Positions 7,747 to 54,036 of a stretch of 57,211 bases of DNA are shown here, one piece after another; positions within the stretch are counted from its first letter, which is position 1; each line of letters opens with the position of its first letter. The stretch spans positions 1 to 57,211 of the forward strand of contig JAZKXP010000068.1 in the NCBI GenBank assembly GCA_045611665.1, read 5' to 3'. Origin of the DNA: Alphaproteobacteria bacterium (GTDB lineage Bacteria; Pseudomonadota; Alphaproteobacteria; CAAHEQ01; UBA3637). The notes under the pieces are model-generated. The model was given only the letters and a program-made list of their open reading frames with translations. It was not told where the DNA came from and did no database searches. Made by a program: the position numbers and the translations under genes.

Positions 7747-7754
7747 GAAAAAAT

Positions 7755-7780
7755 GTGGTAAGAGTTTTCTTACCACTTTT
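7755..7780 (+). terminator. Hairpin after rne
   Basis: GTGGTAAGA-gttt-TCTTACCAC followed by TTTT. Confidence 0.6.
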
Positions 7781-7855
7781 GACCCTATCATCTAGCGGTT
7801 AGGATACAGCCCTCTCAAGGCTGGTACACGGGTTCGATTCCCGTTAGGGTCGCCA
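7781..7855 (+). tRNA. tRNA-Glu(CUC)
   Basis: GACCCTA acceptor strand, CAGCC-CT-CTC-AA-GGCTG anticodon arm, GGTTCGATTCC, ends GCCA. Confidence 0.96.
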
Positions 7856-8070
7856 CTTAATCCCTGACGTGTGTCGGGGATTTTTCCTAACGGTCATCTC
7901 ACCCTACGGGTTCCAATTCCGACTATATTTCAATCTACGGACGGCGGGGCATCCTTGATTTCAATCAGTCTCATTGACTTCATTCAAGAAACTGTCCACC
8001 GGACACTTTCTTTTCATTCGTTCCGACGTTAGGGTCGCCACTTAATCCCTGACGTGTGTCGGGGATTAAG
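7842..8070 (+). repeat. 41-bp direct repeat (tRNA-Glu 3' end plus terminator hairpin) enclosing a structured 144-bp spacer
   Basis: 7842-7882 equals 8027-8067 (CGTTAGGGTCGCCACTTAATCCCTGACGTGTGTCGGGGATT); the spacer holds the hairpin AAGAAACTGTCC-ACC-GGACACTTTCTT. Confidence 0.9.
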
Positions 8071-8145
8071 TATTGTGTTCTGTATTTAACTGTGTTAAAA
8101 TCTTTTGCAAGAGGGTAAACGAGGCTTTCTAGGGGATATGTCTGC

Positions 8146-20708: not shown

Positions 20709-21023
20709 ATGACTTTTATGAGCAATATGTTTCGTAAATTGGTTTTTCGTTTTATGGGAACGGATATTCAACGGATGATTATCAGGTTGCAGGGCGGCCC
20801 GCAACCGAAGGTTTCTTCCGAAGATTACATTATGTTGGCTCCTAATCAAGTCAAGGCATTGGTGAGTATGCAAAAATATGCGCCGGCAACTCAGGTACAA
20901 GAGTTGTTGGAATTATATGAAAAAGTTAATAACGATTGCCCGATTAATCCCGCAACAGCTATTCGGGTTGCCAAAAAGAGTATTTTAGATACTCCGTTTC
21001 CTAAGAAAGAGTGGCATCGATGA
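20709..21023 (+). CDS. Hypothetical protein
   Basis: GAGGA RBS; the stop overlaps the next start (ATGA). Confidence 0.6.
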   Translation: MTFMSNMFRKLVFRFMGTDIQRMIIRLQGGPQPKVSSEDYIMLAPNQVKALVSMQKYAPATQVQELLELYEKVNNDCPINPATAIRVAKKSILDTPFPKKEWHR

Positions 21024-32370: not shown

Positions 32371-33951
32371 CTATCCGTTTAATTCTTTAATACATTCGTC
32401 GTACATTTCCTGAACTGCTTGTTCAAAGGAGTGTGTGAATTTTTCTGTATTAAACAAAGGAGCTTTTTCAATTTTCTTGGTGACTTTTTCGCGTAGATTT
32501 TTTAAGGCCCCCGGTGTTGTACACAGTGTTACGACTTTTTCTTCGTATTCTTGAATATTTTTACAAATCAGTTCGGGCATTTCTAAGGCACTCAACAATG
32601 CGCCTCCTACACGGCTGGGATAAGTTGTACCGGGGCAAGTAATGACCGGACATCCCATAAACAAAGCCTCCATTCCGGTTGTATGCGCATTATAAATTTC
32701 TGTATCCAACAATAAATCCGCGATTTTATAGCGTGCTAAGTGTTCATCGTGCGGCACAAATTTCGAATGGACAATACGGTCTTTTTCAATACCGCGTTTT
32801 TCAAATTCTTTATCGATATTATCTTCCAAAATTTGAGAGTTACCATAGAACCATAAAACCGCCTTTGGTACCCGTTTTAAAATTCGAGCCCATAAATCGA
32901 AATAGGTCGGTGTGAACTTATAGGTATTATTAAAACAACACAAAACGATGGTGTCTGATTTAAATCCCATGTGTTTGCGCAGAGGTTTTCCTTGCGGTAA
33001 TTCAATATTGTGATCAATTAACCAACGAGCTGGTTCCAAATACTTTAATGTTTCGTGATAGTACTTTTCTTCACCGGGCAAAATGCTGAATTTATCCACA
33101 AAGTGATAATCAATGCCCGGCACTCCGCCCATTGTTCCGATATATCCTAAAAATGTTCCTTGAGCCGGTGCCGGTTGATATGTCATAATGCCCAATCGAT
33201 TAAAGCTGGTAAAGCCATTCATATCCACCAAAACATCGATTTTGTCTTCAAAAATTCTTTCGGCGGCGGCTTTATCGTTTAACTTGTCCAGTTGGACGAT
33301 TGTCATATCCTTAATGCTATAGATGCGTTTGCTGGGATAAGAGTCTAATTCCGGATGAATATCGTACAGATACACATCAAATTTATCCCGATTCAATCGT
33401 TCAAAAAATTCCCCAATGACAAAACCGGTCGGATGAGGGCGAATATCGGCGCACAAAAAGCCCAGCTTAATTTTTTTGGGATTTCGTTTTCTGTCATCAA
33501 AAGAAAACGGACATGGTTTTAAACGCAATTCGGGCGCTTCCGATACAAAAGCCCGTAACGCTTTGTACCGTTGTTCATTGCTCAGCGGTAAGTGAGCCCC
33601 GATAAAAAACGGATTGACTTGCCCGCTGTTCAACACATCCGGACGCATAAAATAATTCGTGTCACGTTCCAAAGTATCCCAAAAAACAAAGTTTTTTTCC
33701 AATTCAAATAAACGCGACCGAATATCCATGGGCGTGTCCTCACCATATAATTCAACGATGCGGTTTAATGCCCGATAAGCATTGACTTTTTTACCCATGT
33801 ATCCATAGATTGCAGACACAGCATTTAACGCCTTTAATGTTTTTGGGGCGATTTCCAATACTTTTTGATATTCGGCCAGCGCCTCAACTAACATTCGTCG
33901 GCGCAAATAAATGCCGGCTTGTTCCATATGTTGATCAAATTTACTTGCCAT
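32371..33951 (-). CDS. GT41 protein glycosyltransferase (OGT/SPINDLY-like) with short TPR region
   Basis: TPR-like N-terminus; KLGFLCADIRPHP, DVLVDMNGFT, PAPAQGTFLGY, CFNNTYK, DTEIYNAHTTGMEALFMG.PVIT, SRVG. Confidence 0.9.
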   Translation of the reverse strand: MASKFDQHMEQAGIYLRRRMLVEALAEYQKVLEIAPKTLKALNAVSAIYGYMGKKVNAYRALNRIVELYGEDTPMDIRSRLFELEKNFVFWDTLERDTNYFMRPDVLNSGQVNPFFIGAHLPLSNEQRYKALRAFVSEAPELRLKPCPFSFDDRKRNPKKIKLGFLCADIRPHPTGFVIGEFFERLNRDKFDVYLYDIHPELDSYPSKRIYSIKDMTIVQLDKLNDKAAAERIFEDKIDVLVDMNGFTSFNRLGIMTYQPAPAQGTFLGYIGTMGGVPGIDYHFVDKFSILPGEEKYYHETLKYLEPARWLIDHNIELPQGKPLRKHMGFKSDTIVLCCFNNTYKFTPTYFDLWARILKRVPKAVLWFYGNSQILEDNIDKEFEKRGIEKDRIVHSKFVPHDEHLARYKIADLLLDTEIYNAHTTGMEALFMGCPVITCPGTTYPSRVGGALLSALEMPELICKNIQEYEEKVVTLCTTPGALKNLREKVTKKIEKAPLFNTEKFTHSFEQAVQEMYDECIKELNG

Positions 33952-33960
33952 ATTTTTCTC

Positions 33961-36378
33961 CTATTTTTTACAAACGGCGGCAATTGCTTCTTCATCTGAT
34001 TCATAATAATAGAACGAACCATAGTTACAACCACAATCGGCATATACAGTGCCATAAGGTGCATCTAATCTATGCAGTTGTTCGCCTGTACAACCATAGT
34101 TTGGTGTGTAACACATTGCGGCAATTGCTTCATCATCAGAAGAATATCTGCCCGATGCCTTTTTACAGAAACATTCTTCTTTTACAATCCATAATGAGTC
34201 ATTTGATAAAGCGCGCGCTAATTGATTGTTCGTATCCGCACAGAAATAGTCACCACCTTTTTGACATAAGGCGTCAATTGCTTGGCTATCTGATGAGAAG
34301 TAGCCTCCAGTTGTACAAGAACAAGAGCTTACATAGCTGTTACCTGGTCTGTATATGAAGTTCCCAGTAGAACAGATATAGTGTATACCACCTGTACACA
34401 TTGCTGCAATAGCTTCATCATCAGATGAATAATAGCCGCCGTTTGTGCACAGACAACTTGTTACATGCTCACCATTATTTTTGTATATGAAAGCATTTGT
34501 GGAGCAACCATAATGTTGATTTTGACACATAGCCTCGATGGCCTCTTCATTGGAATCATAATAAGTCGTTGAACCGCTACAATTACAAGTGGTAACATGA
34601 TACCATCCTCCAGTGCTGTCATAAACCTGTAGGTTGTTATTATAACATTGGTATAAAGGCCCACCTGCTTCCTCACACATCGCTGCAATGGCTTCTTCGT
34701 CTGAGCCGTAATAACCCTCCTTATTCGTATCGCATTGACAATTAATTAAATTTGTACTGTTATTTTTAACAATAAAATCACTTCCATGACCTCCATCAAA
34801 ACCAGAGCATGTATACATATCCCTGGATGTTGGTGTTACAGTTTGTGTTTGAGTCACTGTTTCGAATTGACTCATCGCTTCAATCGCTTCTTGGTCTGAG
34901 TTAAAAATTGCAGATGTTGTTGCACAGTTATATGTACCGTAGAATATGTAATAATCCTGACCCCAAGCGTCTCTGTATATACCATTTTCAGAACAAAAAT
35001 AATATGTACTTGAACACATTTGGGCAATAGCATCTTCATCGGAGGCGTAGTAAGAATCGTAGTTGTTGTTGCTACAGAAACAATTGTAATGAAAATCTTG
35101 GTTATTAGTGTCTAAACCATATATAAAACCACCTGCAGAACATGTATAATGTTTTGGAGTGTTTTGACACATTGCGGCGATGGCCTCTTCGTCGGAATCA
35201 TAATAAGCCGTTGAACCACTGACACAAGCGCAAGAGCTAACATACGCAGATTGTCCATTATTAAGTGCTTTTCTTAGTTCAGATGGATTACAATAATAGT
35301 ATGAGGGATCCTCTGGATTTGGCGTTGTAGCATCTTCCTCTTCTTCACACATTGCCGCAATAGCCTCTGCATCGGCATAGAAAACACCTGTTGATCCAGC
35401 AACAATACAATCACAAACGGTAACACCCGTCCATACAGAACCATTTAATACAAGTAGATTATCAGATGTGCATTTATATTCCATGCTAGAACACATCGCC
35501 GCAATGGCTTCTTCATCCGAGTCATAAAAACTTGTTGCACCAGAACAATTACACCACTCTCGCACCCATCCCCCATCGGTTCCCAATCCGATTCCATCTG
35601 TGTTCCCACTACAAAAATAATAAGGCCTATTCGTACACATTTCGTTAATTGCCTCTTCATCAGAATCATAATAAGCTGTTTTAGTTACACAAAAACACTC
35701 ACTATTATGATATATCGTCGGACCAATATAATCTCCCCTCTTTATTGTATGTACAGAGCAATAATACTCTCTTTCTGTACACATCGCGGCGATGGCCTCT
35801 TCGTCTGAATCGTAATAAAACTCTTCATCAGATTCGCTACAATTGCAAGTCGCTACCTTTCCCGATTTGTTTTGAATAGTACCATTCTCACACCAATAAA
35901 AGCCGCCCTCGTCAAGCGCATCCGACAAAACGTTTGTGTCAAAAATAAAGGAAATGGCATTTTCGTCATCGGAAGTACAGCTGACACTGCCCGGTGTGCA
36001 GTCGGTTCCGATAAACAATTTTAATTCGTCGATATAGTGATTATCATCGGCCATGTCTGTAAAGTTTTCACACACACCTTTGGGTAAGCCGGCCATATTA
36101 ACCGCATAACCCGATGAACACATAACGGCTGTGGCCAGATAAGAGCTGTTTAATTGATCAATGGTATCTTGTACACTGGCTAAGGTTAAGTTGTTATTTA
36201 GCAATAACGCTTGAGTCAAAACTGTCGTCCGGTTTAAAAAATCGGTAATGTCGTTGGTTCTGTGTTTGGTTATTGCGGTATTAAATCCCGCGATACCGCC
36301 AACAGACAACACGCCAATAATGGCAAGCGTTCCCAGCATTTCAATCATAGACCGACCGGTTTGTGTGTTTTTCTTCAT
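33961..36378 (-). CDS. Type IV pilin/pseudopilin-like protein with 13 tandem Cys-rich repeats (805 aa)
   Basis: AGGAG RBS before ATG 36378; class III-like leader MKKNTQTG|RSMIEMLGTLAIIGVLSVGG; repeats ending YYxSDEEAIAAMC. Confidence 0.85.
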   Translation of the reverse strand: MKKNTQTGRSMIEMLGTLAIIGVLSVGGIAGFNTAITKHRTNDITDFLNRTTVLTQALLLNNNLTLASVQDTIDQLNSSYLATAVMCSSGYAVNMAGLPKGVCENFTDMADDNHYIDELKLFIGTDCTPGSVSCTSDDENAISFIFDTNVLSDALDEGGFYWCENGTIQNKSGKVATCNCSESDEEFYYDSDEEAIAAMCTEREYYCSVHTIKRGDYIGPTIYHNSECFCVTKTAYYDSDEEAINEMCTNRPYYFCSGNTDGIGLGTDGGWVREWCNCSGATSFYDSDEEAIAAMCSSMEYKCTSDNLLVLNGSVWTGVTVCDCIVAGSTGVFYADAEAIAAMCEEEEDATTPNPEDPSYYYCNPSELRKALNNGQSAYVSSCACVSGSTAYYDSDEEAIAAMCQNTPKHYTCSAGGFIYGLDTNNQDFHYNCFCSNNNYDSYYASDEDAIAQMCSSTYYFCSENGIYRDAWGQDYYIFYGTYNCATTSAIFNSDQEAIEAMSQFETVTQTQTVTPTSRDMYTCSGFDGGHGSDFIVKNNSTNLINCQCDTNKEGYYGSDEEAIAAMCEEAGGPLYQCYNNNLQVYDSTGGWYHVTTCNCSGSTTYYDSNEEAIEAMCQNQHYGCSTNAFIYKNNGEHVTSCLCTNGGYYSSDDEAIAAMCTGGIHYICSTGNFIYRPGNSYVSSCSCTTGGYFSSDSQAIDALCQKGGDYFCADTNNQLARALSNDSLWIVKEECFCKKASGRYSSDDEAIAAMCYTPNYGCTGEQLHRLDAPYGTVYADCGCNYGSFYYYESDEEAIAAVCKK
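33964..35901 (-). repeat. 13 intragenic 41-65 aa repeats: YxC-variable-CxC-x-YYxSDEEAIAAMC
   Basis: Counted directly in the translation. Confidence 0.9.
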
Positions 36379-36423
36379 CAGCAAGCTCCTTGGTAAGGTA
36401 TAAATTTTTTTACAATCTAAGCA

Positions 36424-36581
36424 TAAACCAACGTTTAAATCAACCACTTTTTTTATAACTTTCATATTTTTCTTTTTTTACACACAAATGATTAAAATCG
36501 TAATAAAATCAAATAATTCAAGATTGATATAAAATTAGTACGTTTTTGGGTAAAATCAATGTGGGCATAAACGTTCCTTTA
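36424..36581. promoter_or_regulatory. Imperfect inverted repeats resembling Mpi recombination cores, flanking 130 bp of divergent promoter DNA
   Basis: TAAACCAACGTTTA (36424-36437) and TAAACGTTCCTTTA (36568-36581) are 12/14 complementary. Confidence 0.35.
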
Positions 36582-36617
36582 AATAAACCGTTTTTCCATA
36601 AAATTAGGAGGTTATAA

Positions 36618-37220
36618 ATGGCAATTATCGGTTATATCAGAGTTTCAACAGACAAACAAACCTGTGAACATCAAAAATATGAAATTAAACAATTCGCAAA
36701 AGCTCAAAAAGTCAAAATTACGTATTGGTTAGAAGAAACTATTTCATCCAGAAAATCTTTAGATAAAAGAAAATTAGGAAAATTACTTCAAAGTATGAAA
36801 GCCGGAGATATCCTGATTTCTTGTGAAATATCTCGTCTGGGGCGTTCTATGTTGGAAGTGATGCGGATATTGGAAACTTGTTTAAACAAAGAATGTCAAG
36901 TATGGACAATCAAGGAAAATTTCAGATTGGGAGCGGATATCAGTTCGAAAGTCATGGCTTTTGCTTTTGGTATATCAGCCGAAATCGAACGCAGTTTAAT
37001 ATCTCAACGCACAAAATCATCACTGGCAAATATAAAAGCCAGCGGTAAAAAGCTCGGTCGGCCATTTTCCGCAACCAGTAAGAAGTTGAAACTGTCCAAA
37101 AATACAAAACGGGTCAAAAAGTTGTTAGATAAAGGCCTCTCAAAGGCTCAAATCGCCAGAATTATGGAGGTCGAACGCACAACTTTACGACGTTTTATGT
37201 TCAGACAGGGGTGGTGTTAA
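36618..37220 (+). CDS. mpi: Serine recombinase, Mpi (multiple promoter invertase) family
   Basis: GYIRVSTDKQT, W.EETIS, SRLGRS, KECQVWTIKENFRLG.DI.SKV.AFAFG.SAEIERSLISQRTK, LGRP, C-terminal HTH; matches the Bacteroides Mpi pattern as recalled. Confidence 0.8.
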   Translation: MAIIGYIRVSTDKQTCEHQKYEIKQFAKAQKVKITYWLEETISSRKSLDKRKLGKLLQSMKAGDILISCEISRLGRSMLEVMRILETCLNKECQVWTIKENFRLGADISSKVMAFAFGISAEIERSLISQRTKSSLANIKASGKKLGRPFSATSKKLKLSKNTKRVKKLLDKGLSKAQIARIMEVERTTLRRFMFRQGWC

Positions 37221-37268: not shown

Positions 37269-38591
37269 CTAGTCATTCTCATGCACTAAAATAACATGAT
37301 GACCAGAGGCGGAGATTTTTTCCGCCAGCATTTGGGCTTTACTGATACACTCTTCCGACGTGATACCGAAAATGAGTTTAAGATCATCTAAATTAATCAC
37401 AATCGGAGTAATACAAAATAATGAACTCACGCGTTTTAAATCCTCACCGGATTTGACCCAATGAATACTGCCTAAAGGTATATTTGTCGTAGTTGTTTGT
37501 CCGTTTCCGGTAAAGACAAGGCACCCAATCGTTTTTTTTGAAAGACCGTCAATTAATATGCCAAAGCCATTCGATTTTATGTCTTCTATATTGTTAAAGA
37601 AAATAGGTTCGTTTAACTCTAAAATATGTTCAGACATTTTGTTCACTCGAACAATATTCGTTCCGTGTTTTAACCACATTTCCTGTGTCGGAGCATCAAA
37701 CCATATTGTTTTGTGCTTAATAATATGAGAGGAAATCAGCGGGATATTTGAAATGCAAAAACCGGTCCCAATATCGATATTTTCTTTTATTTGCACACAT
37801 CCGTATGACACAATATCCGAAACCGTTATTTTTAAATGGTTGGGATACACCGTGTAAACGGAGCCTTTTTCCGGTTCGGTTGTCGTCAGTATTTTACCAT
37901 AATAATATCGTTTGTCTTGGTGTAATCGAGCCGAAGAAATGTGCATAATCATATGTTGTTCTATCTTTTTTTCCGACAGTGATATTTTGGCATTTTCAAC
38001 TAATACAGACAAAACTTTATCAATATTATATCCGGTAACGGCAGAAACCGGAATAATCGTATAATCAAAAGTATAATGCGCCAATAATTCTTGAACTTGA
38101 TGCGTTAAATCCTCTATTTTTTGTAAGGCTCGAACGACATCCGATAAAATTAAATCACATTTTGTCAAACAGACACAAATTCTTTTTAATTGAAATAAAG
38201 AGCAAATGCGAATATGTTCCTTTGTTTGTTCCGAAATCCCTTTTTGACAATCAATAACAACGATTGCCATATCTGTTTCAGCCGCTGCAATCGCCATATT
38301 TTTTGTATATTGTACATGGCCGGGGCAATCCAATATATGAAAACGAATGTCCGAATAATCAAAATACCGATGAGCTACATCAATGGTGATTTGTTGTTGT
38401 CTTTCTTCTATTAACCCATCCAAAAGAGCAGACAATTCTAATCTGTTCTCTCCCGTTTGTTTGGAAAAACGTTCGGCTTCTTCTAACTGATCTTTTTTGA
38501 CGTTACCAGTGTCTAATAATAAACGTCCGATTAGTGTGGACTTACCGTCATCTACATTTCCACAACAAATGAATTTAAAAATTCCGTCCAT
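37269..38591 (-). CDS. cysN: Sulfate adenylyltransferase subunit 1 with a short degenerate C-terminal (CysC-like) tail
   Basis: CGNVDDGKSTLIGRLL, ERQQQITIDVAHRYF, DCPGH.QYT.NM, TKCD, PVSA..G.NI. Confidence 0.88.
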   Translation of the reverse strand: MDGIFKFICCGNVDDGKSTLIGRLLLDTGNVKKDQLEEAERFSKQTGENRLELSALLDGLIEERQQQITIDVAHRYFDYSDIRFHILDCPGHVQYTKNMAIAAAETDMAIVVIDCQKGISEQTKEHIRICSLFQLKRICVCLTKCDLILSDVVRALQKIEDLTHQVQELLAHYTFDYTIIPVSAVTGYNIDKVLSVLVENAKISLSEKKIEQHMIMHISSARLHQDKRYYYGKILTTTEPEKGSVYTVYPNHLKITVSDIVSYGCVQIKENIDIGTGFCISNIPLISSHIIKHKTIWFDAPTQEMWLKHGTNIVRVNKMSEHILELNEPIFFNNIEDIKSNGFGILIDGLSKKTIGCLVFTGNGQTTTTNIPLGSIHWVKSGEDLKRVSSLFCITPIVINLDDLKLIFGITSEECISKAQMLAEKISASGHHVILVHEND

Positions 38592-39451
38592 TAAAAATAC
38601 CCATCCTTTTTCTTTTTTTCCATAGCCCCTTCTGTATCGTAATCAATGGCACGTGTAATACGTTCGGTGTACTCGGCTTTTTTTAATTCAGCGATAATAT
38701 CATCAACCGTTGTGGCATCTGACATAACTGCTCCCGTCAACGGATAGCACCCCAGCGTTCTGAAACGAACCATTTTTAACTCGCCGGTGTTGTCCTGAGT
38801 CGCAATATATAACCCGTTTTGAGATTGAGTCAGCCGCCTTTTTTTTGCAAAATACAGCGGAACCACTTCAATATTTTCTTTTTTTATATATTCCCAGATA
38901 TCCAATTCTGTCCAATTGGACAGCGGGAATACTCTCAAACTGGTCGTATCTGTATAAAACGGATTGTACAAAGGGGGTATTTCGGCATTTTGACTTCTGG
39001 GATCCCATTTGTGGTACTCGTTTCTGACCGATACCATTCGTTCTTTGGCTCGAGATTTTTCTTCGTCTCGTCTGGCCCCACCAAATGCGATTTTAATATC
39101 ATATTTTTCAATGGCATTTTTCAACGCTTGCGTTTTCATGATGTCCGTATATCTGCTGCCATCCGTAAATGGATTTAATTTGTCCGGATGTTGATATACC
39201 AACAAATTGATTTCTTTAGCAATTTTGTCCCGAAATTCGTACATTTCCTTAAATTTCCAACCCGTATCAATATGCAAAAAACGGATGGGAACAGGGAATG
39301 GATAAAATGCTTTTTTAAACAAATGTAACAAAACGGATGAATCTTTACCGATACTGTAAAAACAAACTATTTTGGAACAATCGTTTTTAAAACAAATATC
39401 CCGAATTAATTCTATGGCTTCGTGTTCTAATTGGTCTAAGTGCCCGCTCAT
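38591..39451 (-). CDS. cysD: Sulfate adenylyltransferase subunit 2
   Basis: YSIGKDSSV, HIDTGWKF, GGARRDEEKSRAKER, RFRTLGCYPLTGA, MEKKKKDGYF. Confidence 0.97.
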   Translation of the reverse strand: MSGHLDQLEHEAIELIRDICFKNDCSKIVCFYSIGKDSSVLLHLFKKAFYPFPVPIRFLHIDTGWKFKEMYEFRDKIAKEINLLVYQHPDKLNPFTDGSRYTDIMKTQALKNAIEKYDIKIAFGGARRDEEKSRAKERMVSVRNEYHKWDPRSQNAEIPPLYNPFYTDTTSLRVFPLSNWTELDIWEYIKKENIEVVPLYFAKKRRLTQSQNGLYIATQDNTGELKMVRFRTLGCYPLTGAVMSDATTVDDIIAELKKAEYTERITRAIDYDTEGAMEKKKKDGYF

Positions 39452-40971
39452 TTGACATCCTTTGTATTTTTCGGATAAAAACTAAATTCATCAGATGAAT
39501 ATCCCCATGCTGTTCCGCCACGATAAATAACAGCATGAAACAGCTCTTGATGCGTATCAAAATCATATCTGATTAAATCAGCGTACGCCATATTGGATTG
39601 ATTTTTATCAAACACCTGAGAAATAAAAACCGTTACATCATTTTGTTCGGCATTGTAAGATACAGAGGATCCGGTATCTGAACGTACGCCCAAAGGTTGT
39701 ATCCAATATTGTTGTACCGTCCGTTTTTTACCATCTACCTTGAATAAGGAGGCATAAGAGTCATCTGTTGTAAAAACCGTTTTGTCATGTATCGGTCCGG
39801 AATTATCAAATAATCCAAAAACACCATCTTCAAATACTTTTGCATTATGATTTTTGGTCGGCCATTTAAAAGCAGAAATGGCTTTTTCACCTTGCTGAAC
39901 GGCACGATCATACGCACGCCCTTTGGCATTCACAGCCGTTAATACTTTATGGTGAATATCGGGACCTTGTCCTTGCCGGCCGGATACTTCAAATCCTTTG
40001 TTAGGTGTAATCATCCATACGAGTTCCTTTGTTTTTTCATCCACTTTAATCATTCCCGAATGACGGCAAGATACAACGATACCACCATCTGTTTTGTCAT
40101 AATCAATGCCATTGATATGACACCAATCATTCATGCCATAATCAACGTGTCCTTTTTCAACAATAACAGAACGATTTGGGTTTAATAATTCGGCTAAATC
40201 TATTTTATTAAGTACTTCCCCCGTTTGATAATCAATTTCAAGAATCCAATCACGATGCGTTTTTTGTTGTTTGCCATCAACCAACACAACACTACCCGCA
40301 AATGACCCGATGACTAAAAAATTTTTGTTTGTTTTTTGTCCCATACCATGAGTAAACGAAGAAAAGCCTTTAGGGTATTTGTAATATTGCAATAACTTTC
40401 CGGCCGGAGAATATCTATAGATACCACGATTGCGATATTCTACAATTACCTCATGATTAAACCAATAACATAAACCACCGCCTTTTGCCTGAAAAGAAAA
40501 TCTCATCCATCCGTTTTCATCGAATACCATTCCGTCAGATAGCCAATGATATCTGGTTTGTGTGTCGTTTTTTTGCGTTACAACGAATAAGTTTCGTTTT
40601 TGAACCTTAGGCACGGAAATAATTGTTGTACTTTTTTCGGTTTTATTTGGATAAATCGCCGTTAAGACAACGGTGTTTTTATAATTGGGATATAACCCTA
40701 AAACCTCAATACTATGCTGTGTTGTTTCCTCTGAACCGGTATATGAAATATCTTGCGCTCCTTCACGCCCTTTAACTGTCACCTGAATCTTAGCCGGTGC
40801 AAGAGTTTCAAAATGAACCAAGGCTGCTAATTCATTATTGCCATATGGATTTAACCGAACATTAAAACCATTTAATGTTTTAATTTCGGCTGTTTTTTCT
40901 GAAGGATAGATAAAATATCCCACAACAAAACAGAATAAAAAAACAGTAAGTCCGGTTAAAATATTTTTCAT
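39448..40971 (-). CDS. Exported arylsulfotransferase (ASST family)
   Basis: N-terminal TM; Ig-like LNPYG..LAALV/VLGLYP domain; FTHG, DWCHINGIDY..VSCRH, NHNA and FDN motifs. Confidence 0.88.
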   Translation of the reverse strand: MKNILTGLTVFLFCFVVGYFIYPSEKTAEIKTLNGFNVRLNPYGNNELAALVHFETLAPAKIQVTVKGREGAQDISYTGSEETTQHSIEVLGLYPNYKNTVVLTAIYPNKTEKSTTIISVPKVQKRNLFVVTQKNDTQTRYHWLSDGMVFDENGWMRFSFQAKGGGLCYWFNHEVIVEYRNRGIYRYSPAGKLLQYYKYPKGFSSFTHGMGQKTNKNFLVIGSFAGSVVLVDGKQQKTHRDWILEIDYQTGEVLNKIDLAELLNPNRSVIVEKGHVDYGMNDWCHINGIDYDKTDGGIVVSCRHSGMIKVDEKTKELVWMITPNKGFEVSGRQGQGPDIHHKVLTAVNAKGRAYDRAVQQGEKAISAFKWPTKNHNAKVFEDGVFGLFDNSGPIHDKTVFTTDDSYASLFKVDGKKRTVQQYWIQPLGVRSDTGSSVSYNAEQNDVTVFISQVFDKNQSNMAYADLIRYDFDTHQELFHAVIYRGGTAWGYSSDEFSFYPKNTKDVK

Positions 40972-40974
40972 TTT

Positions 40975-41571
40975 TTAGTCCTTTTTAATGCATAATGCCT
41001 GTAGTGTTTTAAAGTTTTGTTTTGAGGTTTCATAAACAGTACCATCATTAATGTCTGCATAGTAAGCCGCTACCTTATCTTTTGACTCTAACCAAAAGAA
41101 ACCTCTGGATCCGAAAGCATCTTGTAAAGCAATTATTGTCTCGGTGTCCAAACAGGCCGGTCCGATACCGTCACACATGAAATCAGAACGTGTCGCTTGG
41201 CGATACTTTTTTCCTAAAGCACTACAAAAATTTGTGGCAGATTGATAATTTAACAACATTTCCGATAAAACGAATTCTGACGCATTAATTTGTATCGGCG
41301 TGTGTTTTGTTGCTGAGGCGCAAGCCCCTTCTGTGTCCGATTGCACACAAAAATATCCTTTTTTGCAATTTTTATTAACAGAACAGGCCCCGTCTGTATG
41401 AATATCACAATATCTGCCCGTATAAATCGTTGGATTATCGCAAATACATGCTCCAATCCAGGGTGCGCCATATCCGTTTTTACAAAAATCCGTATCTAAC
41501 ATGTCAAGAGAAAATGCAGGCAAGGCGTGCAAAACAAAAAAATAAAAAATAAATGCAATGTGTTTCTTCAT
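40975..41571 (-). CDS. Secreted EGF-like + CLec-like Cys-rich protein
   Basis: Signal peptide MKKHIAF; CICD..YTGRYC EGF-like motif; C-terminus homologous by eye to ORF1 (FFWLE...AYYADINDG.VY...QALC). Confidence 0.7.
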   Translation of the reverse strand: MKKHIAFIFYFFVLHALPAFSLDMLDTDFCKNGYGAPWIGACICDNPTIYTGRYCDIHTDGACSVNKNCKKGYFCVQSDTEGACASATKHTPIQINASEFVLSEMLLNYQSATNFCSALGKKYRQATRSDFMCDGIGPACLDTETIIALQDAFGSRGFFWLESKDKVAAYYADINDGTVYETSKQNFKTLQALCIKKD

Positions 41572-41681
41572 AATTAAAATAAAATACAAAAAAATAAACT
41601 TAATTGAGATTGTTTTTTTTGTAATACCATATTATCTTATTTATTTCAACCTTCTTTTATAAAAGACCAGTAACCTTTATC

Positions 41682-42410
41682 CTATAAAAATAAGTTTAAT
41701 AAGTTGATTGAAATAACAACCAGTGCTACAGCAAACATTAACTGCTTTGCTTTCATTTTACAACATCCGTATGCTGATAATGGAGAAGCCATAATCCCGC
41801 CGATAATGAGGCCTAAAATGATTTTCCAATGGTATACACCAATTAACGAAAAAAACATTATAGATTGAGCGGCCGTTACAAAAAATTCCGCAATATTGGC
41901 CGTTCCAATAACATATTTAGGGGAATTACCCCGAGCAATTAATGTGGTGTTAACAATAGGGCCCCAACCTCCACCGCCTAAAGCATCCAAAAATCCCCCG
42001 CAAAAACCCAAAAACGGTATAGATTTAGGGTGTCGAGGTTGTTTTTTAGGGCGCCATATCAATACCAAAATTCGAACGCCTAAAATCAATAAGTATATTG
42101 CAACCAAACTTTTTAGCAACTCTGAATTAAATGAGCATAAAAAATAAGCGCCGATAATCCCGCCGATAACCCCAGGGATAGCCAACTTCTTTAACAATGT
42201 TATATCGGCATTTTTAAATTTTATATGAGCAATTCCAGAGGCGCATGTTGTAAATATTTCACTAAAATGCACACTGGCGCTGGCTGCGGGTAATGGAATA
42301 CCCATTGTAATCAGTGTACTGGTGGAAAAAACGCCATACGCCATTCCTAAACATCCGTCTATCAGTTGGGCCACGAAACCTATGCCGATAAAAAATAATA
42401 AGTCTTCCAT
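41682..42410 (-). CDS. TauE/SafE (TSUP) sulfur-compound transporter
   Basis: AQLIDGCLGMAYGV, ASASVHFSE, DALGGGGWGP, GTANIAEFFV. Confidence 0.92.
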   Translation of the reverse strand: MEDLLFFIGIGFVAQLIDGCLGMAYGVFSTSTLITMGIPLPAASASVHFSEIFTTCASGIAHIKFKNADITLLKKLAIPGVIGGIIGAYFLCSFNSELLKSLVAIYLLILGVRILVLIWRPKKQPRHPKSIPFLGFCGGFLDALGGGGWGPIVNTTLIARGNSPKYVIGTANIAEFFVTAAQSIMFFSLIGVYHWKIILGLIIGGIMASPLSAYGCCKMKAKQLMFAVALVVISINLLNLFL

Positions 42411-43538: not shown

Positions 43539-43886
43539 TAGACGGCCCTTTCAAATAGTCAAAAAACAGAAAAAAGGATTAATGGGGTCCTTTTTTAATT
43601 CTTTAAGTATTCCTCTTTTGTATATTAAAACACGCTTGAGTTGTCAATAAAAACCACATAGGGGGCGGCTCTTTTATTGGCGGGCTGTGATATATGGACG
43701 AAACGATGGTATTTTGCCGTAACGAAAGCTCTATAACAACAAAGGTATAAATTTTGTTGGCAAACATCAATGTTGTTTAATCCCCAAAATCATTCAATAG
43801 ATTATTTCTTTTCTCCTTGTTTTTTTATTGTATATTTTTTATACTATGTTATATTGAAATATCGTTTAAGATAAGAGGTATTGACC

Positions 43887-46800
43887 ATGAAAAAAATATT
43901 TTGTTTTCTTGTTTGTATGATGATTAATTTGTCTGTCGATGCACAATGGTTTCCGTATATTCGTGTGCCGGATAAACAAAAACAAATGGAGTTGCAAGAT
44001 TTAACTATTGACGTTCAAATTATGGGTAATATTGCAACAACCACTTATGATATGGTTTTCTTTAATCCTAACAACAAAATATTAGAAGGGGAAATGATTT
44101 TTCCCATGACACAAAATCAAACCGTTGTGGCTATGGCATTGGATATCAATGGGAAAATGCGAGGTGCATCTGCGGTTGATAAGGATGAAGCCCGTCGCAT
44201 TTTTGAAAAACAAGTACGACGAAACATTGACCCTGCTTTAATTGAAAAAGTATCCGGTAATCAATATAAAATGCGCATTTATCCTTTTAACCCTAAGGGA
44301 ACGCGTCGTATTCAAATTACAACTGAAGACAGTTTAATTGTTAAAAATAATGAAATGTCCTTATCTATTCCTTTAACATACAATAAGAAAATCAATCATT
44401 TTGGTGTTAAGGTGAACGTGGTGCAGGATGGCTCTGAGATGCCAAAAGTAAAAACGGATTTGGAAAATTTTACCTTTACTCAAAAAAATCAACACTTAAC
44501 AGCGTCCTTTGAAAAACAAGATTATTTGCTTAATAATTCATTGGAATTTACATTTCCGGCCCCAAAAACAGAGATTGTTTATACGGGGGATGAGGCAGGT
44601 AAAAATTATTTTTATTCCAATATCAATGTTAAAAAATCTCAAAAAAGAAAAGGGTTACCTAAAAAAATAGCTGTTGTTTGGGATATTTCTTTTTCCGGTG
44701 AAACGCGCGATTTGAAAAAGGAAAAAGAAGTGTTAATCGGTTATTTGAAGAAAATTAAAAACATAGATGTTGATTTGATTGCTTTTAATATTAAGCAGAA
44801 CAAAAAATCTTCCTTTAAAATTCAACAGGGCAATACAACGGCTTTATTGCAGGCCATTAATGCATTGGTTTATGATGGAGGAACCCGTTTGGATAAAGTG
44901 GATTTGTCCGCCATTAAAGCAGATGAAATTTTGTTGTTCACGGATGGTGTTGCAACAATCGGAGATAGTGTGATTAAACCGATTAGAACGCCGGTTTATG
45001 TCATTACATCATCAGATAAAAGTGAATTTTCAATGTTATCCAATATGGCCAATAAAACATTGGCTCGTTTAATTAATTTGACAACGACTTCTGTGGAAGA
45101 AGCGTTAAAACAATTAACACATAAACCGTTACGTTTAATCGGTTATAAAACAACATCCGCCAAAGAGATTTATCCCTTGCCTTCTGCGGTTGTTGGCGAA
45201 GATTTTACTTTTACAGGTCTCTATGATGGTAAATCGGCCGAAATTGAATTGCAATTCGGTTATGATACCCAAAACATTACAGAGCGGAAAACGATTAAGG
45301 TTGGAGCAAATCAAAAAAACACTCTGGTTCCAAGGCAGTGGGCCTCCCATAAAGCGCGTGAGTTGGAATTAGATGCTAAAAATAATCGGGCGGCCATTGT
45401 GCAATTAGGTAAAGATTTTTCAATTTTAACAGAATATACTTCTTTATTGGTATTGGATAGTTTAAATGATTATTTGACCTATAAAGTGGCGCCGAAAGAT
45501 GCCGATTTATTGGAAAAATATAATCGCCATGTCTCCTTTAAGAAACAAAAAAGTAAGTATGCGGAACTCAAAGAAAAGCGGCGAGCACTTGTTGATACCT
45601 TACGTATGGTGAATCAAGTTAAAAAATGGTGGGAAAAGGACTTTATGCCAGAACCACCCGAAGCGCCTGATGAACCATGGGGTTTTGCTAAAAATCCGGA
45701 AGATTTGGATAAACAATATGGGGTTATTGTAGATCAAGAAGAAAGAATGTATGGTATAAGTCCTACTGGTACAGGGATACATGATATGGCTGTCAATGTC
45801 ATTGGAAGAGTGGTATCTGATAAGGATGAGATTTTATTAGATGCTCAAGAAAGTGAAAAGCCACAAAAAGAAGCTAAAATCAAATTGAAAGAATGGTCGC
45901 CTAATACACCCTATATTAAGGAGTTGCGTAAAGTAAAAAATGCTGATTTATATCGTGTGTATTTGGTGCAAAAGAAAAAGTATCGGGATATGCCGGCTTT
46001 TTATTTCGATGTGGCGGAAGAATTTGCAAAACGAAATATGACCGAACAAGCAACTTTGATTTTAACTAATTTGTTGGAAATGAAAACGGATAATGTAGAA
46101 TTATTGCGTGTAACCGCTCATAAATTGCAAGCTTACAAACACTATCAAATAGCTGAGTTCTTATTCAAAAAAATCATTGAAATGTATTCAGAAGAACCGC
46201 AAGGATATCGTGATTTAGCTAAATTATATGAAGCCTCAAATCAAAATCAAAAAGCATTAGAACAATATCTATTTATTCTGACTAAAAAATGGAGTGATTT
46301 TAATGAGATTAAAAAAGAAGTGTTTGTTGATATGAATGGGTTGATTGCACGGGATAAGTCGCTTAATACCCGTGATATCAATTCGAACCTGATTTTCAAT
46401 ATGCCACTTGATTTGCGTATAACTTTAGGGTGGAGTGCCAGAGATAAAAGCGTTGGTTTGGATGTATTTGATCCTTATCATCAAAATGCATATCGTGGTG
46501 AAAACGACAATGGAGCCAAACACATATATTCCGGTTGGGGCTGGGGTCCTGAAAGCTATATGATTAAAAAAGCTATCGAAGGAAACTACAAAATCAGGGC
46601 CTATGATTATCATGGTGATAGTCGTCAAGGAGTGGTTTTGCCGGTTTTTGCTTGGATTGATGTCTATACCCATTTCGGACAAAAAAATCAAAAACAGGAA
46701 CGTATGTTGATTCGTATGGATGAAATTAAAAATCAAGAGATGGGAAGTGTTGATTTTAAAACAAAAAGTTGTTCAAAAGAAACGCCCATTTGGTATATAG

Positions 46801-48821
46801 ATACTTGTACCTCTTGTGATGATACACGCAAATTGTTTGTATCTAAAAAACAATGCGATTTATGTCCCGGTAGAAAAATGTTTGGTGATTTTTGTATCCA
46901 AACGTGCACAGCGGATAAACCAATGCAAAGCTCTGTTGGAAATTGTTATGAATGTAATAATAACAAGGCTCTGAAATTATCTGAGGAAGAATGTAAAAAA
47001 TGTCCAAATCGTGAAATGAAGTTCGGCTATTGTGTTTTAAATAATTATACTTGCCCTGACGATAAACCGCTTCGTGAAGGGGTTGTGACCTGTCAATCTT
47101 GCGATTATGAAAAATCTATGATTGTGTCGCCTGAAGATTGTGTCAAATGTCCGAACCGTGAAATGATTGGCAAGTTCTGCGCTTTAAAACAATGTCCTGC
47201 CGATAAACCGTTGCAAGGGAAAAACGGTATGTGTTATCGTTATGATTGCGATGCAGTATCTGCAGATATTATTAATCCCGATGATTGTGCTAAGTGTCCG
47301 AACCGAAAAATGCAGGGAAAATATTGTATCAGAAAATCCTGTTCTCCAAAGAATCCGATTGAAGGTAAAAATGGTGAATGTTACGCCTGTGATGCTATAT
47401 TCTCTGTCACAACTGAAAAAACAGAATGTGACAAGTGTTCGAATAGAACATTATTCGGTAATCAGTGTAAATTAAATTGTTCGGGTAATAGACCGCTTCA
47501 AGACAAAACAGGGGACTGTTATTCTTGTGATGAAGATATCTCTGTGGAAACAACAAAGGAACAGTGTGCAATATGTCCAAATCGTGAATTTAACGAAGGA
47601 AAATGTGTTAAAAAAACTTGTTTCAGTGATAAGGATATTGAAGGGAAAGACGGTCGTTGTTATTCTTGTGATTACAAAGGGAGTGTTCATACATATAAGG
47701 AAGAATGTGCAAAATGTTCTAATCGTTATATGATGAAAGAATATTGTATAAAATCATGTGAAAAGGAAAATCAAATCCAAGATACAAATGGCCGGTGTTA
47801 TGATTGCGATACAAGACGTTCTATCGATGTAGATGAAAAAACATGTAAAAAATGTCCAAATCGTGTCTATAAAGATAATTTGTGTGTTATCCCCTGTCCA
47901 AAAGACAGACCTATCAGGGATAAATGGGGAGAGTGTCATACGTGTGATGATGAAGATAGCATTCAAACAGATGCAATGGAATGCAAAAAATGTTCTAACC
48001 GTACGCAATTTGGTGAATATTGTAAAATGGCCTGTGATAAGTATGAACCAATGCAACGCGTTGAAGGTGATGGGCATTGTTATGATTGTGATGCTGAAGG
48101 TGGCTTAAGTATTCCGCAAGAAGAATGTAATAAGTGTCCAAATCGTGAAATGGTGAATGATTTGTGTTTTGAAAAGTGTCCGGATTATGCCCCATTGGTC
48201 GATGAAGAAGGTACCTGTTATACGTGTGATATGGATGAACATATTACACGTCGGGATTCATATATCCGGGCAGTGACGGAGTCTGTCGGGTATCACATAG
48301 GATCTGGTATTTCAATGCAAGCGGTTAAAACAAGTAAAGAAAATTGCTTAAAATGTCCTAATCGAATTTATCGGGATGGATATTGTATTAATAAAGCTCC
48401 TCAAGGTATTTTTATGGCGGATCTGAAAAGAGGACAATACTATGCCTGTTCGCTTGAAAGATCTTTAGACATTCCAAAAGAAGAATGCGATAAATGTTCT
48501 AATCGTGTCATGATAGGAAATGTTTGTGTTGTTAAGGATTGTCCTGAAAATACACCCATTCGATTATCAGAAGGGGAATGTTCTTCTTGCGAAAATGATA
48601 CAATGTTATCCGTTTCAAAAGAACAATGTGATAGATGTCCGAATAGAATGATGCAGGGGCCCTTTTGCACATTAAAGGAATGCCCGACAGATACCCCAAT
48701 GATTGGAAATAATGGTCGGTGTATCAGTTGCCAAACAGATATCTTATTGTCCATTTCACCAAAGGAATGTGCTAAATGTCCGAACCGTGAAATAAAGGGT
48801 AATTATTGTGTTTTGAAGTAG
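43887..48821 (+). CDS. Secreted VIT + vWA-like + TPR + DUF2135-like protein with 14 C-terminal 6-Cys repeats
   Basis: Signal peptide; F.NPN.KILEGE..FP and RRNIDPALIE (VIT); VWDIS.S...FTDG (vWA-like); DLRITLGW..GWGPESY (DUF2135-like); GAGG RBS before ATG 43887. Confidence 0.82.
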   Translation: MKKIFCFLVCMMINLSVDAQWFPYIRVPDKQKQMELQDLTIDVQIMGNIATTTYDMVFFNPNNKILEGEMIFPMTQNQTVVAMALDINGKMRGASAVDKDEARRIFEKQVRRNIDPALIEKVSGNQYKMRIYPFNPKGTRRIQITTEDSLIVKNNEMSLSIPLTYNKKINHFGVKVNVVQDGSEMPKVKTDLENFTFTQKNQHLTASFEKQDYLLNNSLEFTFPAPKTEIVYTGDEAGKNYFYSNINVKKSQKRKGLPKKIAVVWDISFSGETRDLKKEKEVLIGYLKKIKNIDVDLIAFNIKQNKKSSFKIQQGNTTALLQAINALVYDGGTRLDKVDLSAIKADEILLFTDGVATIGDSVIKPIRTPVYVITSSDKSEFSMLSNMANKTLARLINLTTTSVEEALKQLTHKPLRLIGYKTTSAKEIYPLPSAVVGEDFTFTGLYDGKSAEIELQFGYDTQNITERKTIKVGANQKNTLVPRQWASHKARELELDAKNNRAAIVQLGKDFSILTEYTSLLVLDSLNDYLTYKVAPKDADLLEKYNRHVSFKKQKSKYAELKEKRRALVDTLRMVNQVKKWWEKDFMPEPPEAPDEPWGFAKNPEDLDKQYGVIVDQEERMYGISPTGTGIHDMAVNVIGRVVSDKDEILLDAQESEKPQKEAKIKLKEWSPNTPYIKELRKVKNADLYRVYLVQKKKYRDMPAFYFDVAEEFAKRNMTEQATLILTNLLEMKTDNVELLRVTAHKLQAYKHYQIAEFLFKKIIEMYSEEPQGYRDLAKLYEASNQNQKALEQYLFILTKKWSDFNEIKKEVFVDMNGLIARDKSLNTRDINSNLIFNMPLDLRITLGWSARDKSVGLDVFDPYHQNAYRGENDNGAKHIYSGWGWGPESYMIKKAIEGNYKIRAYDYHGDSRQGVVLPVFAWIDVYTHFGQKNQKQERMLIRMDEIKNQEMGSVDFKTKSCSKETPIWYIDTCTSCDDTRKLFVSKKQCDLCPGRKMFGDFCIQTCTADKPMQSSVGNCYECNNNKALKLSEEECKKCPNREMKFGYCVLNNYTCPDDKPLREGVVTCQSCDYEKSMIVSPEDCVKCPNREMIGKFCALKQCPADKPLQGKNGMCYRYDCDAVSADIINPDDCAKCPNRKMQGKYCIRKSCSPKNPIEGKNGECYACDAIFSVTTEKTECDKCSNRTLFGNQCKLNCSGNRPLQDKTGDCYSCDEDISVETTKEQCAICPNREFNEGKCVKKTCFSDKDIEGKDGRCYSCDYKGSVHTYKEECAKCSNRYMMKEYCIKSCEKENQIQDTNGRCYDCDTRRSIDVDEKTCKKCPNRVYKDNLCVIPCPKDRPIRDKWGECHTCDDEDSIQTDAMECKKCSNRTQFGEYCKMACDKYEPMQRVEGDGHCYDCDAEGGLSIPQEECNKCPNREMVNDLCFEKCPDYAPLVDEEGTCYTCDMDEHITRRDSYIRAVTESVGYHIGSGISMQAVKTSKENCLKCPNRIYRDGYCINKAPQGIFMADLKRGQYYACSLERSLDIPKEECDKCSNRVMIGNVCVVKDCPENTPIRLSEGECSSCENDTMLSVSKEQCDRCPNRMMQGPFCTLKECPTDTPMIGNNGRCISCQTDILLSISPKECAKCPNREIKGNYCVLK
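46770..48818 (+). repeat. 14 tandem ~46-aa Cys repeats (C..DKP....G.C..C...........C.KC.NR......C), furin-like spacing
   Basis: Counted in the translation. Confidence 0.88.
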
Positions 48822-51951: not shown

Positions 51952-52047
51952 GCGTAGTGGCTGGAGAAGTCTGGTAATACACGGAATGATTTTAATATTG
52001 AAACCATTTAAAAATAATGCTAAAGTTTAACACAAAGGAGTTTAAAA

Positions 52048-52476: not shown

Positions 52477-52547
52477 ATGCATTATGCTTGCTTATTAAAG
52501 GAATAACATATTCTGTTTGTTACTCAAATTCCCTTAGTTTAGTCAAC

Positions 52548-52571
52548 AAAAAAACCTCCATAAGGGAGGTT
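52548..52571. terminator. Hairpin terminator
   Basis: AACCTCC-ataag-GGAGGTT flanked by A/T runs. Confidence 0.6.
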
Positions 52572-52606
52572 CTTTTATTGGCTGGAGAAGTTTGGTAATA
52601 CACGGA

Positions 52607-53644: not shown

Positions 53645-54036
53645 TAAATATTATCTCCAAATTTCATATTTTTATACATACAATTATAATGCTTTGAAAA
53701 AATAAAATCAAATAAAATTGTAGTTTTTTCAAAAAGATGTATTTCATAACATCAATATCACCTAATTAAAAGTTTGAAGTATTTCTTTTTGTGTTTTAAA
53801 AATGCTAACCTTGATTTTCAAAAAATCGAAGTCAGAACTTCATTAGGAAACATCAATATTAGTTAATCGCAAAGAGGATTTATATAATGAACCTTAATAT
53901 ACGTTTAAGTAAAAATTAAAATTTGATCAAATACAAATTCCCTCCTTGAGGACAAGTTTAAATAGTTCTTTAAATTTTTTGAAAGGAGGGAGTTTAAACA
54001 TAAATTTGAATAAGTCATTACCATTTGATGAAAACA

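Follow-up and report, generated by a model that had tools for sequence, protein, structure and literature searches.

Modular type IV pilins, in which a small pilin module with a class III (prepilin) signal carries additional modules grafted onto its C-terminus, are widespread and probably located at pilus tips, and one example of 860 amino acids (aa) contains 12 repeats of a single motif, according to a survey of these proteins (Raynaud et al. 2021, PMC8179133). Here we describe a gene whose product has this architecture, located in a stretch of 57,211 nt from an uncultured gut Alphaproteobacteria bacterium (contig JAZKXP010000068.1 of assembly GCA_045611665.1); we refer to this whole stretch as the window. 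The gene (33961..36378, minus strand) encodes P0001, a protein of 805 aa with a pilin-like N-terminal part and a long C-terminal array of Cys-rich units, and is directly followed by a gene for an OGT-type glycosyltransferase of family GT41. In its architecture the protein is a modular pilin, a kind already described; the novelty lies in the module, in the pairing with an OGT outside the cyanobacteria and in a large pilin family with the leader motif G-R-S-M-x-E. P0001 is most likely a fast-evolving surface fibre or adhesin and, with moderate confidence, we favor the reading that it is a modular type IV (IVb-like) pilin that carries its array on a filament, is modified by the OGT and exposes a set of variable hairpins.

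P0001 shares with PilB and PilC of Streptococcus sanguinis, modular pilins covered by the survey, the class III signal, the small pilin module and the C-terminal grafted modules (PMC8179133). It differs from the modular pilins described there in that its module belongs to no described family and is invisible to an InterPro-based survey, and in its IVb-like head and Arg mature N-terminus (PMC8179133). Surveys of modular pilins rely on known domain signatures, and the P0001 module, which has a confidently predicted fold and no detectable relative, goes unseen by them. The 155-aa pilin module of P0001 is followed by 13 modules that are predicted to fold independently, which is the layout of a modular pilin in the sense of that survey.

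TcpB of Vibrio cholerae is a large minor type IVb pilin. CofB of enterotoxigenic Escherichia coli (ETEC) is described as a large minor type IVb pilin in the same survey (PMC8179133). P0001 has in common with CofB and TcpB a type IVb context and a pilin domain that is joined by a linker to beta-rich domains at the C-terminus; for all three, a place at the tip and a role in ligand binding have been proposed. The tails of CofB and TcpB consist of a beta-repeat and a beta-sandwich, whereas the tail of P0001 consists of 13 small disulfide modules, for which no match at E ≤ 0.001, by sequence or by fold, was found in the PDB.

The partnership of a pilin with an OGT has a precedent in the cyanobacteria. 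In Synechococcus elongatus, Ogt, a cytoplasmic protein with TPR and GT41 parts that is encoded beside pilin genes, is needed for N-acetylglucosamine (GlcNAc) on PilA and for normal piliation, and in 77 of 201 cyanobacterial genomes an ogt gene lies next to pilin genes (PMC9306852). A GT41 gene of the OGT type adjoins the pilin gene here too, but in an alphaproteobacterium, with a modular pilin of 805 aa and with close translational coupling of the two genes.

The P0001 open reading frame (ORF) comprises 805 codons and a stop codon, which is included in the coordinates, and contains no internal stop. The frame is also open up to an upstream ATG at 36465; we prefer the ATG at 36378 because AAGGAG, a Shine-Dalgarno sequence, lies 7 nt before it, because the ATG at 36465 has no comparable ribosome-binding site, and because the closest homologue, P0002 (897 aa), starts at the equivalent position with the same short 8-aa leader. 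The N-terminus reads MKKNTQTG/RSMIEMLGTLAIIGVLSVGG, in which a short hydrophilic leader (36355..36378, minus strand) ends in Gly before the putative prepilin-peptidase site, marked here by a slash, and is followed by a stretch of about 20 hydrophobic residues with Glu at +5, as in a class III (prepilin) signal. The mature protein of 797 residues would have a calculated mass of about 85 kDa. An earlier reading of this gene from the sequence alone, which we call the original prediction, had given the start of the putative mature protein correctly as RSMIE and had treated Arg in place of the usual Phe at +1 as an oddity of the gene. The second part does not stand: in an alignment of 42 head relatives, G8, R9, S10, M11 and E13 are each at least 90% conserved, and C103 is invariant. 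Judged from these sequences, Arg at +1 is a hallmark of a large pilin family (3615 proteins) and no peculiarity of P0001. The G-R-S-M-x-E motif string was not found in the literature searched, nor did we find a paper on that pilin family.

We regard the head of P0001 as a type IVb-like pilin module, on the basis of an AlphaFold2 (AF2) model, Foldseek comparisons with weak structural E-values, and sequence relatives. The module (residues 9–155; 35914..36354, minus strand) is predicted to consist of a hydrophobic alpha-1 helix and an alpha/beta head with four Cys. In a sequence search with residues 1–155, 3615 of 4024 candidates reached E ≤ 0.001; Bundlin (PF05307) and/or PilS N-terminal (PF08805) domains are precomputed for many of the relatives of 150–240 aa, and several of those listed come from metagenome-assembled genomes (MAGs) of Alphaproteobacteria. 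P0001 itself has no match to PF05307 or PF08805 at E ≤ 1 in Pfam and so is not a type IVb member by sequence, and its 8-aa leader is shorter than is typical for IVb pilins. The AF2 model, built on a shallow alignment of 42 rows, has a pLDDT of 77.7 and shows a helix at residues 11–60 followed by a further helix and four strands; that is, the long alpha-1 helix bearing a globular alpha/beta head of a type IV pilin. In a Foldseek search of the PDB with this model, rank 1 is 9iuf, a subunit of the type IVb pilus of ETEC (probability 0.96, E = 0.11), and ranks 2–4 are V. cholerae TCP chains (8uhf directly after 9iuf), with the first four ranks spanning probabilities of 0.72–0.96 and E-values of 0.11–0.18; S. 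typhi PilS (3fhu) is at rank 11. Similarly, the ESM Atlas neighbours of whole P0001 are PilS/Bundlin clusters. The description ‘pilin-like’ in the original prediction is therefore supported by the leader, the head model, the Foldseek ranks and the relatives with Bundlin or PilS domains.

The rest of the protein (residues 156–803; 33970..35913, minus strand) is an array of tandem Cys-stapled units, which we delimited by unit parsing, alignments, a DNA core and AF2 models; two Lys follow the last Cys at the C-terminal end. Cutting P0001 at each A-I-x-x-M-C motif yields exactly 13 units of 43–65 aa, each with the fixed frame Y-x-C...C-x-C...YY-x-SDEEAIAAMC. A 36-nt DNA core is present 13 times at a spacing of 129–195 nt, with 64–92% identity to a reference copy, and Tandem Repeats Finder reported 0 arrays in the region because the unit copies are too diverged in DNA. 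Some units resemble each other in their junctions: the tails of units 5 and 9 (SGST.YYDS.EEAI.AMC, then QN) are 88% identical over 59 nt, and EE directly follows units 4 and 8. Thus the 13 units of constant frame and variable loop that had been proposed are real, and the observations of the original prediction, from the coordinates and leader letters to the loss of two Cys in unit 7 and the likeness of the junctions, are borne out in every detail.

The Cys content of the units is nearly invariant. In the 55 units of six family proteins (see below), 49 have four Cys, three have six, two have five and one has two; both five-Cys units are the first units of N-terminally truncated fragments that start with the last Cys of the lost unit. 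Cys thus always occur in pairs, as expected for an oxidised extracytoplasmic protein. In P0001, 12 of the 13 units have four Cys, and unit 7 (34870..35013, minus strand) is the sole two-Cys unit among the 55, with TAT (Tyr) at the second Cys (C2) and AGT (Ser) at the fourth (C4), each one base from TGT. The most economical reading of this joint loss is that C1 pairs with C3 and C2 with C4, a pairing that we infer from the sequence, as did the original prediction.

Conservation over the 55 units separates the frame from the loops. The Tyr two residues before C1, C1 itself and C3 are 100% conserved, and C2 is 98% conserved. In the tail, conservation is 78% for Tyr, 80% for Ser, 82% for Asp, and 75% and 80% for the two Glu, and at the end of the unit 100% for Ala, 89% for Ile, 84% for Met and 98% for C4. 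The C1–C2 spacing varies from 14 to 26 residues and the C3–C4 spacing from 16 to 22, while a single residue separates C2 from C3 in 45 of 49 units. The C1–C2 segment is 51% Gly, Asn, Ser, Thr and Tyr. The array is strongly acidic, with 93 Asp and Glu against 27 Lys and Arg in 650 residues. Unit junctions are mostly of 2–5 residues and have no common cleavage motif, and Thr/Pro/Glu-rich linkers lie between some units.

Each module is predicted to form a small four-stranded sheet packed against a C-terminal helix. The AF2 model of units 10–11 has a pLDDT of 85.4 with no residue below 50; the alignment behind it is shallow and holds 26 two-unit pieces, of which the window supplied 12 and the locus that encodes P0002 supplied 14, all of them paralogous units of only two proteins. 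Strands occupy positions 3–7, 12–15, 20–24 and 30–32 of the unit and the helix positions 35–42, and the pattern recurs in the second unit, a confident answer to the structure prediction that had been suggested as a check. In the model, C1 ends strand 1, C2 ends strand 3 at the Cys-x-Cys, Tyr-Tyr forms strand 4, and the conserved Ser of SDEE directly precedes the helix; the strand 1–2 turn, strand 2 and the strand 2–3 hairpin vary freely in sequence and length. Approximately three residues separate the last Cys of one unit from the first strand of the next and, given this short gap, we infer that the array should form a beads-on-a-string rod.

The 45-aa unit belongs to no described repeat or domain family. 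Pfam searches with whole P0001 and with its units gave only sub-threshold noise (MAAL_N, DUF2188, DIPSY, SH3_16), and NCBIfam gave 0 families for P0001. A sequence profile search of the PDB with the unit returned a single match at E = 1.4, a Foldseek search with the two-unit model returned none at E ≤ 0.001 (best E 1.4 in the PDB and 1.1 in BFVD), and a search of the ESM Atlas with residues 569–705 gave no usable match. DUF2188 (PF09954), a small strand-plus-helix family, was considered as a possible relative since one P0001 unit matches it weakly and locally (residues 726–755; whole-protein E = 0.0027, 18.2 bits), but this is below the cut-off of 22 bits and fails to recur in the other units (matches in 1 of 13 units taken singly and in 2 of 26 two-unit pieces, at E ≥ 0.22); we therefore dropped it. 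Two repeat or leader motif strings were absent from the literature searched, and nothing relevant to cysteine-rich repeat pilins of gut Alphaproteobacteria was among the literature matches listed. The repeat, which the original prediction had not recognised, thus matches no Pfam family at cut-off, and the arrays are not invariant among relatives, as described below.

The family defined by this unit is very small. A hidden Markov model (HMM) of the 13 P0001 units, that is, of a single protein, found 7 proteins at E ≤ 0.001 in one search of a library of 1.84 billion representative proteins. Four of these belong to the family, namely P0003 with 661 aa, P0004 with 629 aa and two fragments of 314 aa (P0009) and 96 aa (P0011). 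We rejected P0010 and P0012, which are Big_2-type repeat proteins that match only the SD.EAIA stretch, and P0013, a Cys-free repeat protein that matches only profile positions 32–47. That only a handful of matches was found among 1.84 billion proteins indicates that the 13-unit pattern is not due to chance; it also shows that the HMM search suggested at the outset leads to a small family and to no described one. Word-indexed searches, in which only about 8000 candidates were scored each, added P0002, from an Alphaproteobacteria MAG, and no further close member. The family therefore consists of four full-length proteins, two fragments and one distant relative, P0006 (965 aa). P0006 has the same leader and about a dozen looser units of the form Y-Y-C...C...C...A..A..L-C, in which C2 and C3 are separated by several residues; one of its units aligns to the unit profile with an hhalign probability of 83% (E = 9e-6), which hints at a wider superfamily of pilin-borne Cys-stapled repeats. 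Every family member ends directly after the last Cys and one or two charged residues.

The arrays differ among relatives in both the number and the order of their units. P0001 has 13 units, P0002 has 15, P0003 has 10 and P0004 has 9. To compare units, we used the variable part only, with the last 13 residues removed. Units 4, 5 and 6 of P0003 have their counterparts in units 6, 7 and 8 of P0004 (88%, 94% and 55%), and P0004 has two additional units in between. In P0009, the counterpart of P0001 unit 5 is unit 3 (79%) and that of P0001 unit 6 is unit 2 (42%), so that the order of these modules is swapped; P0001 unit 6 also resembles P0002 unit 4 (55%). Within P0002, units 9 and 15 are 90% alike, which points to an internal duplication. 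For 11 of the 13 P0001 units, the best match anywhere is below 50%. Comparing the number and order of repeats among strains was a further check that had been proposed for this gene; among the relatives compared here, the arrays are not invariant.

The DNA of the repeats gives little indication of exchange between units at present. At the 627 pairwise positions of the conserved 13-residue tail with the same residue, the same codon is used in 50.4% of cases, compared to 45.3% expected from the gene's own codon usage, and the longest exact match between two P0001 units is 20 nt, with all other pairs at 14 nt or less. The near-random choice of synonymous codons argues that the frame is kept by purifying selection on the protein rather than by recent gene conversion, and matches this short offer little substrate today for homologous recombination. 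Block duplication through the conserved DNA, as originally proposed, thus fits the history of the family, in which modules were duplicated, inserted and reordered, but is not a current process in this gene. Between P0001 and P0002, the head has 60% aa identity and a dN of 0.30, and the array, whose alignment is uncertain, has about 46% aa identity and a dN of 0.53; dN/dS is not computable for either, as dS is saturated.

Variable pilus-tip or pilin parts are produced by DNA rearrangement in the R64 PilV shufflon and in the pilE/pilS system of Neisseria. P0001 is like these in having a variable C-terminal part and, in the window, a gene for a site-specific recombinase next door, but it differs from them in having no inverted-repeat-flanked segments and no silent cassettes in the window, and the recombinase is not kept at the P0002 locus. 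We found no silent cassettes, repeat-like coding sequence or second pilin gene elsewhere in the 57-kb window. Inside the gene, the only inverted repeats are weak (14–24 nt, 71–94%) and flank no segments, and no reverse-transcriptase family turned up among the scanned ORFs. We therefore rejected diversification by cassettes, by a shufflon or by a diversity-generating retroelement.

The GT41 gene (32371..33951, minus strand; 526 aa) starts 9 nt after the pilin stop codon, and its AGGAG overlaps that stop; judged from this layout, the pilin and GT41 genes form a tight operon and are co-transcribed. The product has a GT41 catalytic domain (PF13844, E = 4e-71, 240 bits against a cut-off of 25) and a weak TPR_2 match (20.7 bits against a cut-off of 27), and its sequence matches in the PDB include human OGT (4e-64), Xanthomonas XcOGT (3e-54) and SPINDLY (2e-42). 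To find related loci, we scanned contigs with whole P0001, which gave 30 pattern matches and 0 relatives, and with the unit alignment, which gave 69 pattern matches and 1 locus. This locus, L001 (contig JAFYRI010000011.1, from an Alphaproteobacteria MAG of water-buffalo caecum), carries P0002, directly followed by the same GT41 gene, and the pilin–GT41 pair is therefore present in 2 of 2 loci. The GT41 proteins of the window and L001 have 90% aa identity, with a dN of 0.06 and a dN/dS of 0.04. Beyond the pair, nothing else is syntenic between the two neighbourhoods.

Two further genes of L001 flank the pilin/GT41 pair and encode proteins with the same kind of leader, G-R-S-M-V-E: P0134 (557 aa; 6482–8155, minus strand) and P0136 (549 aa; 17283–18932, plus strand). 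The C-terminal part of each is Cys-rich, of its own kind and internally duplicated, and has no match in Pfam; like the repeat pilins, both proteins end in a Cys followed by one or two charged residues.

The mechanism that we favor for P0001, as a modular type IV pilin, would run as follows. The prepilin would enter the inner membrane, lose its leader by cleavage after Gly8 and be held in a type IV filament by its alpha-1 helix, most likely as a minor or tip subunit because of its 650-aa tail, as is argued for modular pilins in the survey (PMC8179133). The tail would fold in the oxidising periplasm, with two disulfides per module (C1–C3 and C2–C4), into a strongly acidic beads-on-a-string stalk. 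Before export, the OGT-like enzyme would add GlcNAc-type sugars to Ser or Thr in the cytoplasm, as shown for cyanobacterial PilA. The variable hairpins would present an exposed, fast-evolving surface for adhesion, for antigenic or phage-receptor variation, or for both, and their diversity would arise from point divergence together with occasional gain, loss, duplication and reordering of whole modules. An array of binders, each with its own loop, as the original prediction suggested from the sequence, is plausible. A more ambitious form of this idea, in which the 45-aa unit is a new natural binding scaffold whose two-disulfide, four-strand-plus-helix frame displays a single hypervariable hairpin, and sets of 9–15 different units act as a combinatorial, multi-specific tip adhesin that alters its repertoire through gain, loss and reordering of modules and is O-GlcNAc-modified by a dedicated OGT before export, we consider distinctly doubtful; if true, modification before export would extend the cyanobacterial pilin–Ogt route to a large modular adhesin.

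A disulfide-stapled frame of about 45 residues that tolerates 14–26 unrelated loop residues would be attractive as a compact scaffold for binding, and it could help to explain how uncultured gut Alphaproteobacteria attach to their hosts or evade phages and immunity. The conserved OGT partner offers a testable candidate for a second case, outside the cyanobacteria, of the cytoplasmic glycosylation of a pilin by an OGT-type enzyme. As the family has very few members, all from metagenomes, its general importance is uncertain.

Several observations weigh against this mechanism. With respect to the pilin part, the Pfam N_methyl match of P0001 is sub-threshold (E = 0.19, 11.8 bits against a cut-off of 21.2), the head model has no Foldseek match in the PDB at E ≤ 0.001 (best E = 0.11), and scans of the 39 main ORFs of the window and of 10 ORFs in L001 turned up no prepilin peptidase, assembly ATPase, platform protein or secretin. 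With respect to glycosylation, the GT41 protein is predicted to be cytoplasmic while the repeats fold outside the cytoplasm. Moreover, Ser/Thr-x-x-Glu is a helix capping box, and the conservation of SDEE is explained by its place at the helix N-cap, such that a modification site need not be invoked. With respect to fast evolution, the one clear orthologous unit pair has a dN/dS of 0.22 with saturated dS, which gives no evidence of positive selection, and the divergence of the loops could reflect relaxed constraint in old repeats. Finally, the exact P0002 sequence occurs on five contigs, showing that an array can be stable within a lineage.

In one alternative, which we hold to be possible, though unlikely, the rigid beads of the array form a glycosylated, acidic spacer or antigenic shield that is otherwise inert, and the differences among loops are neutral drift. 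The repeats are old, as their synonymous sites have come close to saturation, and this, with the dN/dS of the orthologous pair, the excess of acidic over basic residues (93 to 27) and the Thr/Pro/Glu-rich linkers, speaks for a spacer. A pure spacer would also be expected to tolerate homogenised repeats, however, and the P0001 units are each distinct. Moreover, the dN of the array is about 9 times that of the adjacent GT41 gene, and unit content differs among relatives. The loops are also rich in Gly, Asn, Ser, Thr and Tyr, a composition that is common in binding loops.

Another alternative has no filament at all. If the pilin leader served only as an export signal or anchor, the array would work in the periplasm or as a pilus-independent surface stalk, with the protein either tethered to the inner membrane or released. 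The absence of pilus assembly genes within the 57 kb of the window and within 20 kb in L001 agrees with this. So does the presence of three genes with this kind of leader within 11 kb of L001; their large C-terminal parts are Cys-rich but differ, and together they look more like a family of exported surface proteins than like a pilus operon. We nevertheless consider such a role rather improbable. The head has the full architecture of a pilin, its nearest folds are those of assembled type IVb pilins, and hundreds of its short relatives, of 150–230 aa, carry the Bundlin and PilS domains typical of filament-forming subunits; in addition, the known large modular pilins are borne on filaments (PMC8179133).

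A third alternative concerns the expression of the pilin gene rather than its product. The immediate divergent neighbour of the pilin gene encodes a serine DNA invertase of the Mpi family (36618..37220, plus strand; NCBIfam NF009949, 270.3 bits against a cut-off of 272; Pfam Resolvase and HTH_7). The two genes are separated by an AT-rich intergenic region of 239 bp (36379..36617), which presumably contains the promoter. About 130 bp of this region, a typical size for an invertible promoter, lie between the two halves of an imperfect inverted repeat of 14 nt (36424–36437 and 36568–36581); no other exact pair of this pattern occurs in the window. The invertase might therefore flip a promoter segment between the two repeats and make the pilin gene phase-variable. 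We regard this as quite improbable, since an inverted repeat as good or better occurs in 38% of dinucleotide shuffles and is thus no better than chance, no sigma-70-like promoter was found inside the segment, and neither an invertase gene nor the 14-nt repeat is present beside P0002 in L001. An Mpi-type invertible-promoter switch was rejected on these grounds, and the invertase is probably not part of the conserved module, judging from the two loci. A second inverted repeat, of 24 nt and 75% complementary, joins the leader codons of the pilin gene (36334–36357) to the invertase gene (36840–36863); it arises because both genes encode G-R-S-M-(I/L)-E on opposite strands and is probably a coincidence.

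The alternation of conserved and hypervariable segments, which is the layout of multi-core peptide precursors, and the ending of family members right after the last Cys and one or two charged residues would also fit a polyprotein that is cut into 13 disulfide-rich, bacteriocin-like or signalling peptides of about 45 aa with the conserved tail as processing element, but this is scarcely credible, as the AF2 model shows a single compact domain made of conserved and variable parts alike, neither locus has a gene for a protease, maturase or exporter beside the pilin gene, the short junctions (mostly 2–5 residues) have no common cleavage motif, and the N-terminus is a full pilin module and not a leader peptide.

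The window contains several other genes in the vicinity of the pilin and GT41 genes. Next to the invertase gene, a sulfur cluster on the minus strand (37269–42410) encodes CysD, a CysN-like GTPase of 440 aa whose match covers only about 260 residues, an arylsulfotransferase of periplasmic type (ASST, 507 aa; 39448–40971), the sulfite exporter TauE and a protein of 204 aa with no family match. Another ASST-like ORF, which is shorter, is located at 3292–3918 (plus strand). We considered whether the conserved Tyr-Tyr-acidic motif of the repeats is sulfated with the help of the nearby CysD, CysN-like and arylsulfotransferase proteins. The CysN-like, CysD, arylsulfotransferase and TauE genes are not found in the L001 neighbourhood, and Tyr-Tyr forms strand 4 of the unit model; sulfation of the motif by the periplasmic arylsulfotransferase is thus unlikely.

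The window (52578–53835) and L001 (4464–5719) share a region encoding DUF3137 with 97.5% DNA identity over 1259 nt, compared to 82% for the GT41 gene, which suggests a recent transfer, or a mobile or strongly conserved element. It is flanked by matches of 32–64 nt (81–94%) to other places in L001, at 51955–51992, 52544–52606 and 52578–52609 of the window. Other large genes of surface or host-interaction type encode a 1646-aa VIT-domain protein (43881–48821, plus strand), a Sel1-repeat protein (9963–11504, plus strand) and an ankyrin-repeat protein (21011–22705, plus strand), and these are consistent with a host-associated lifestyle.

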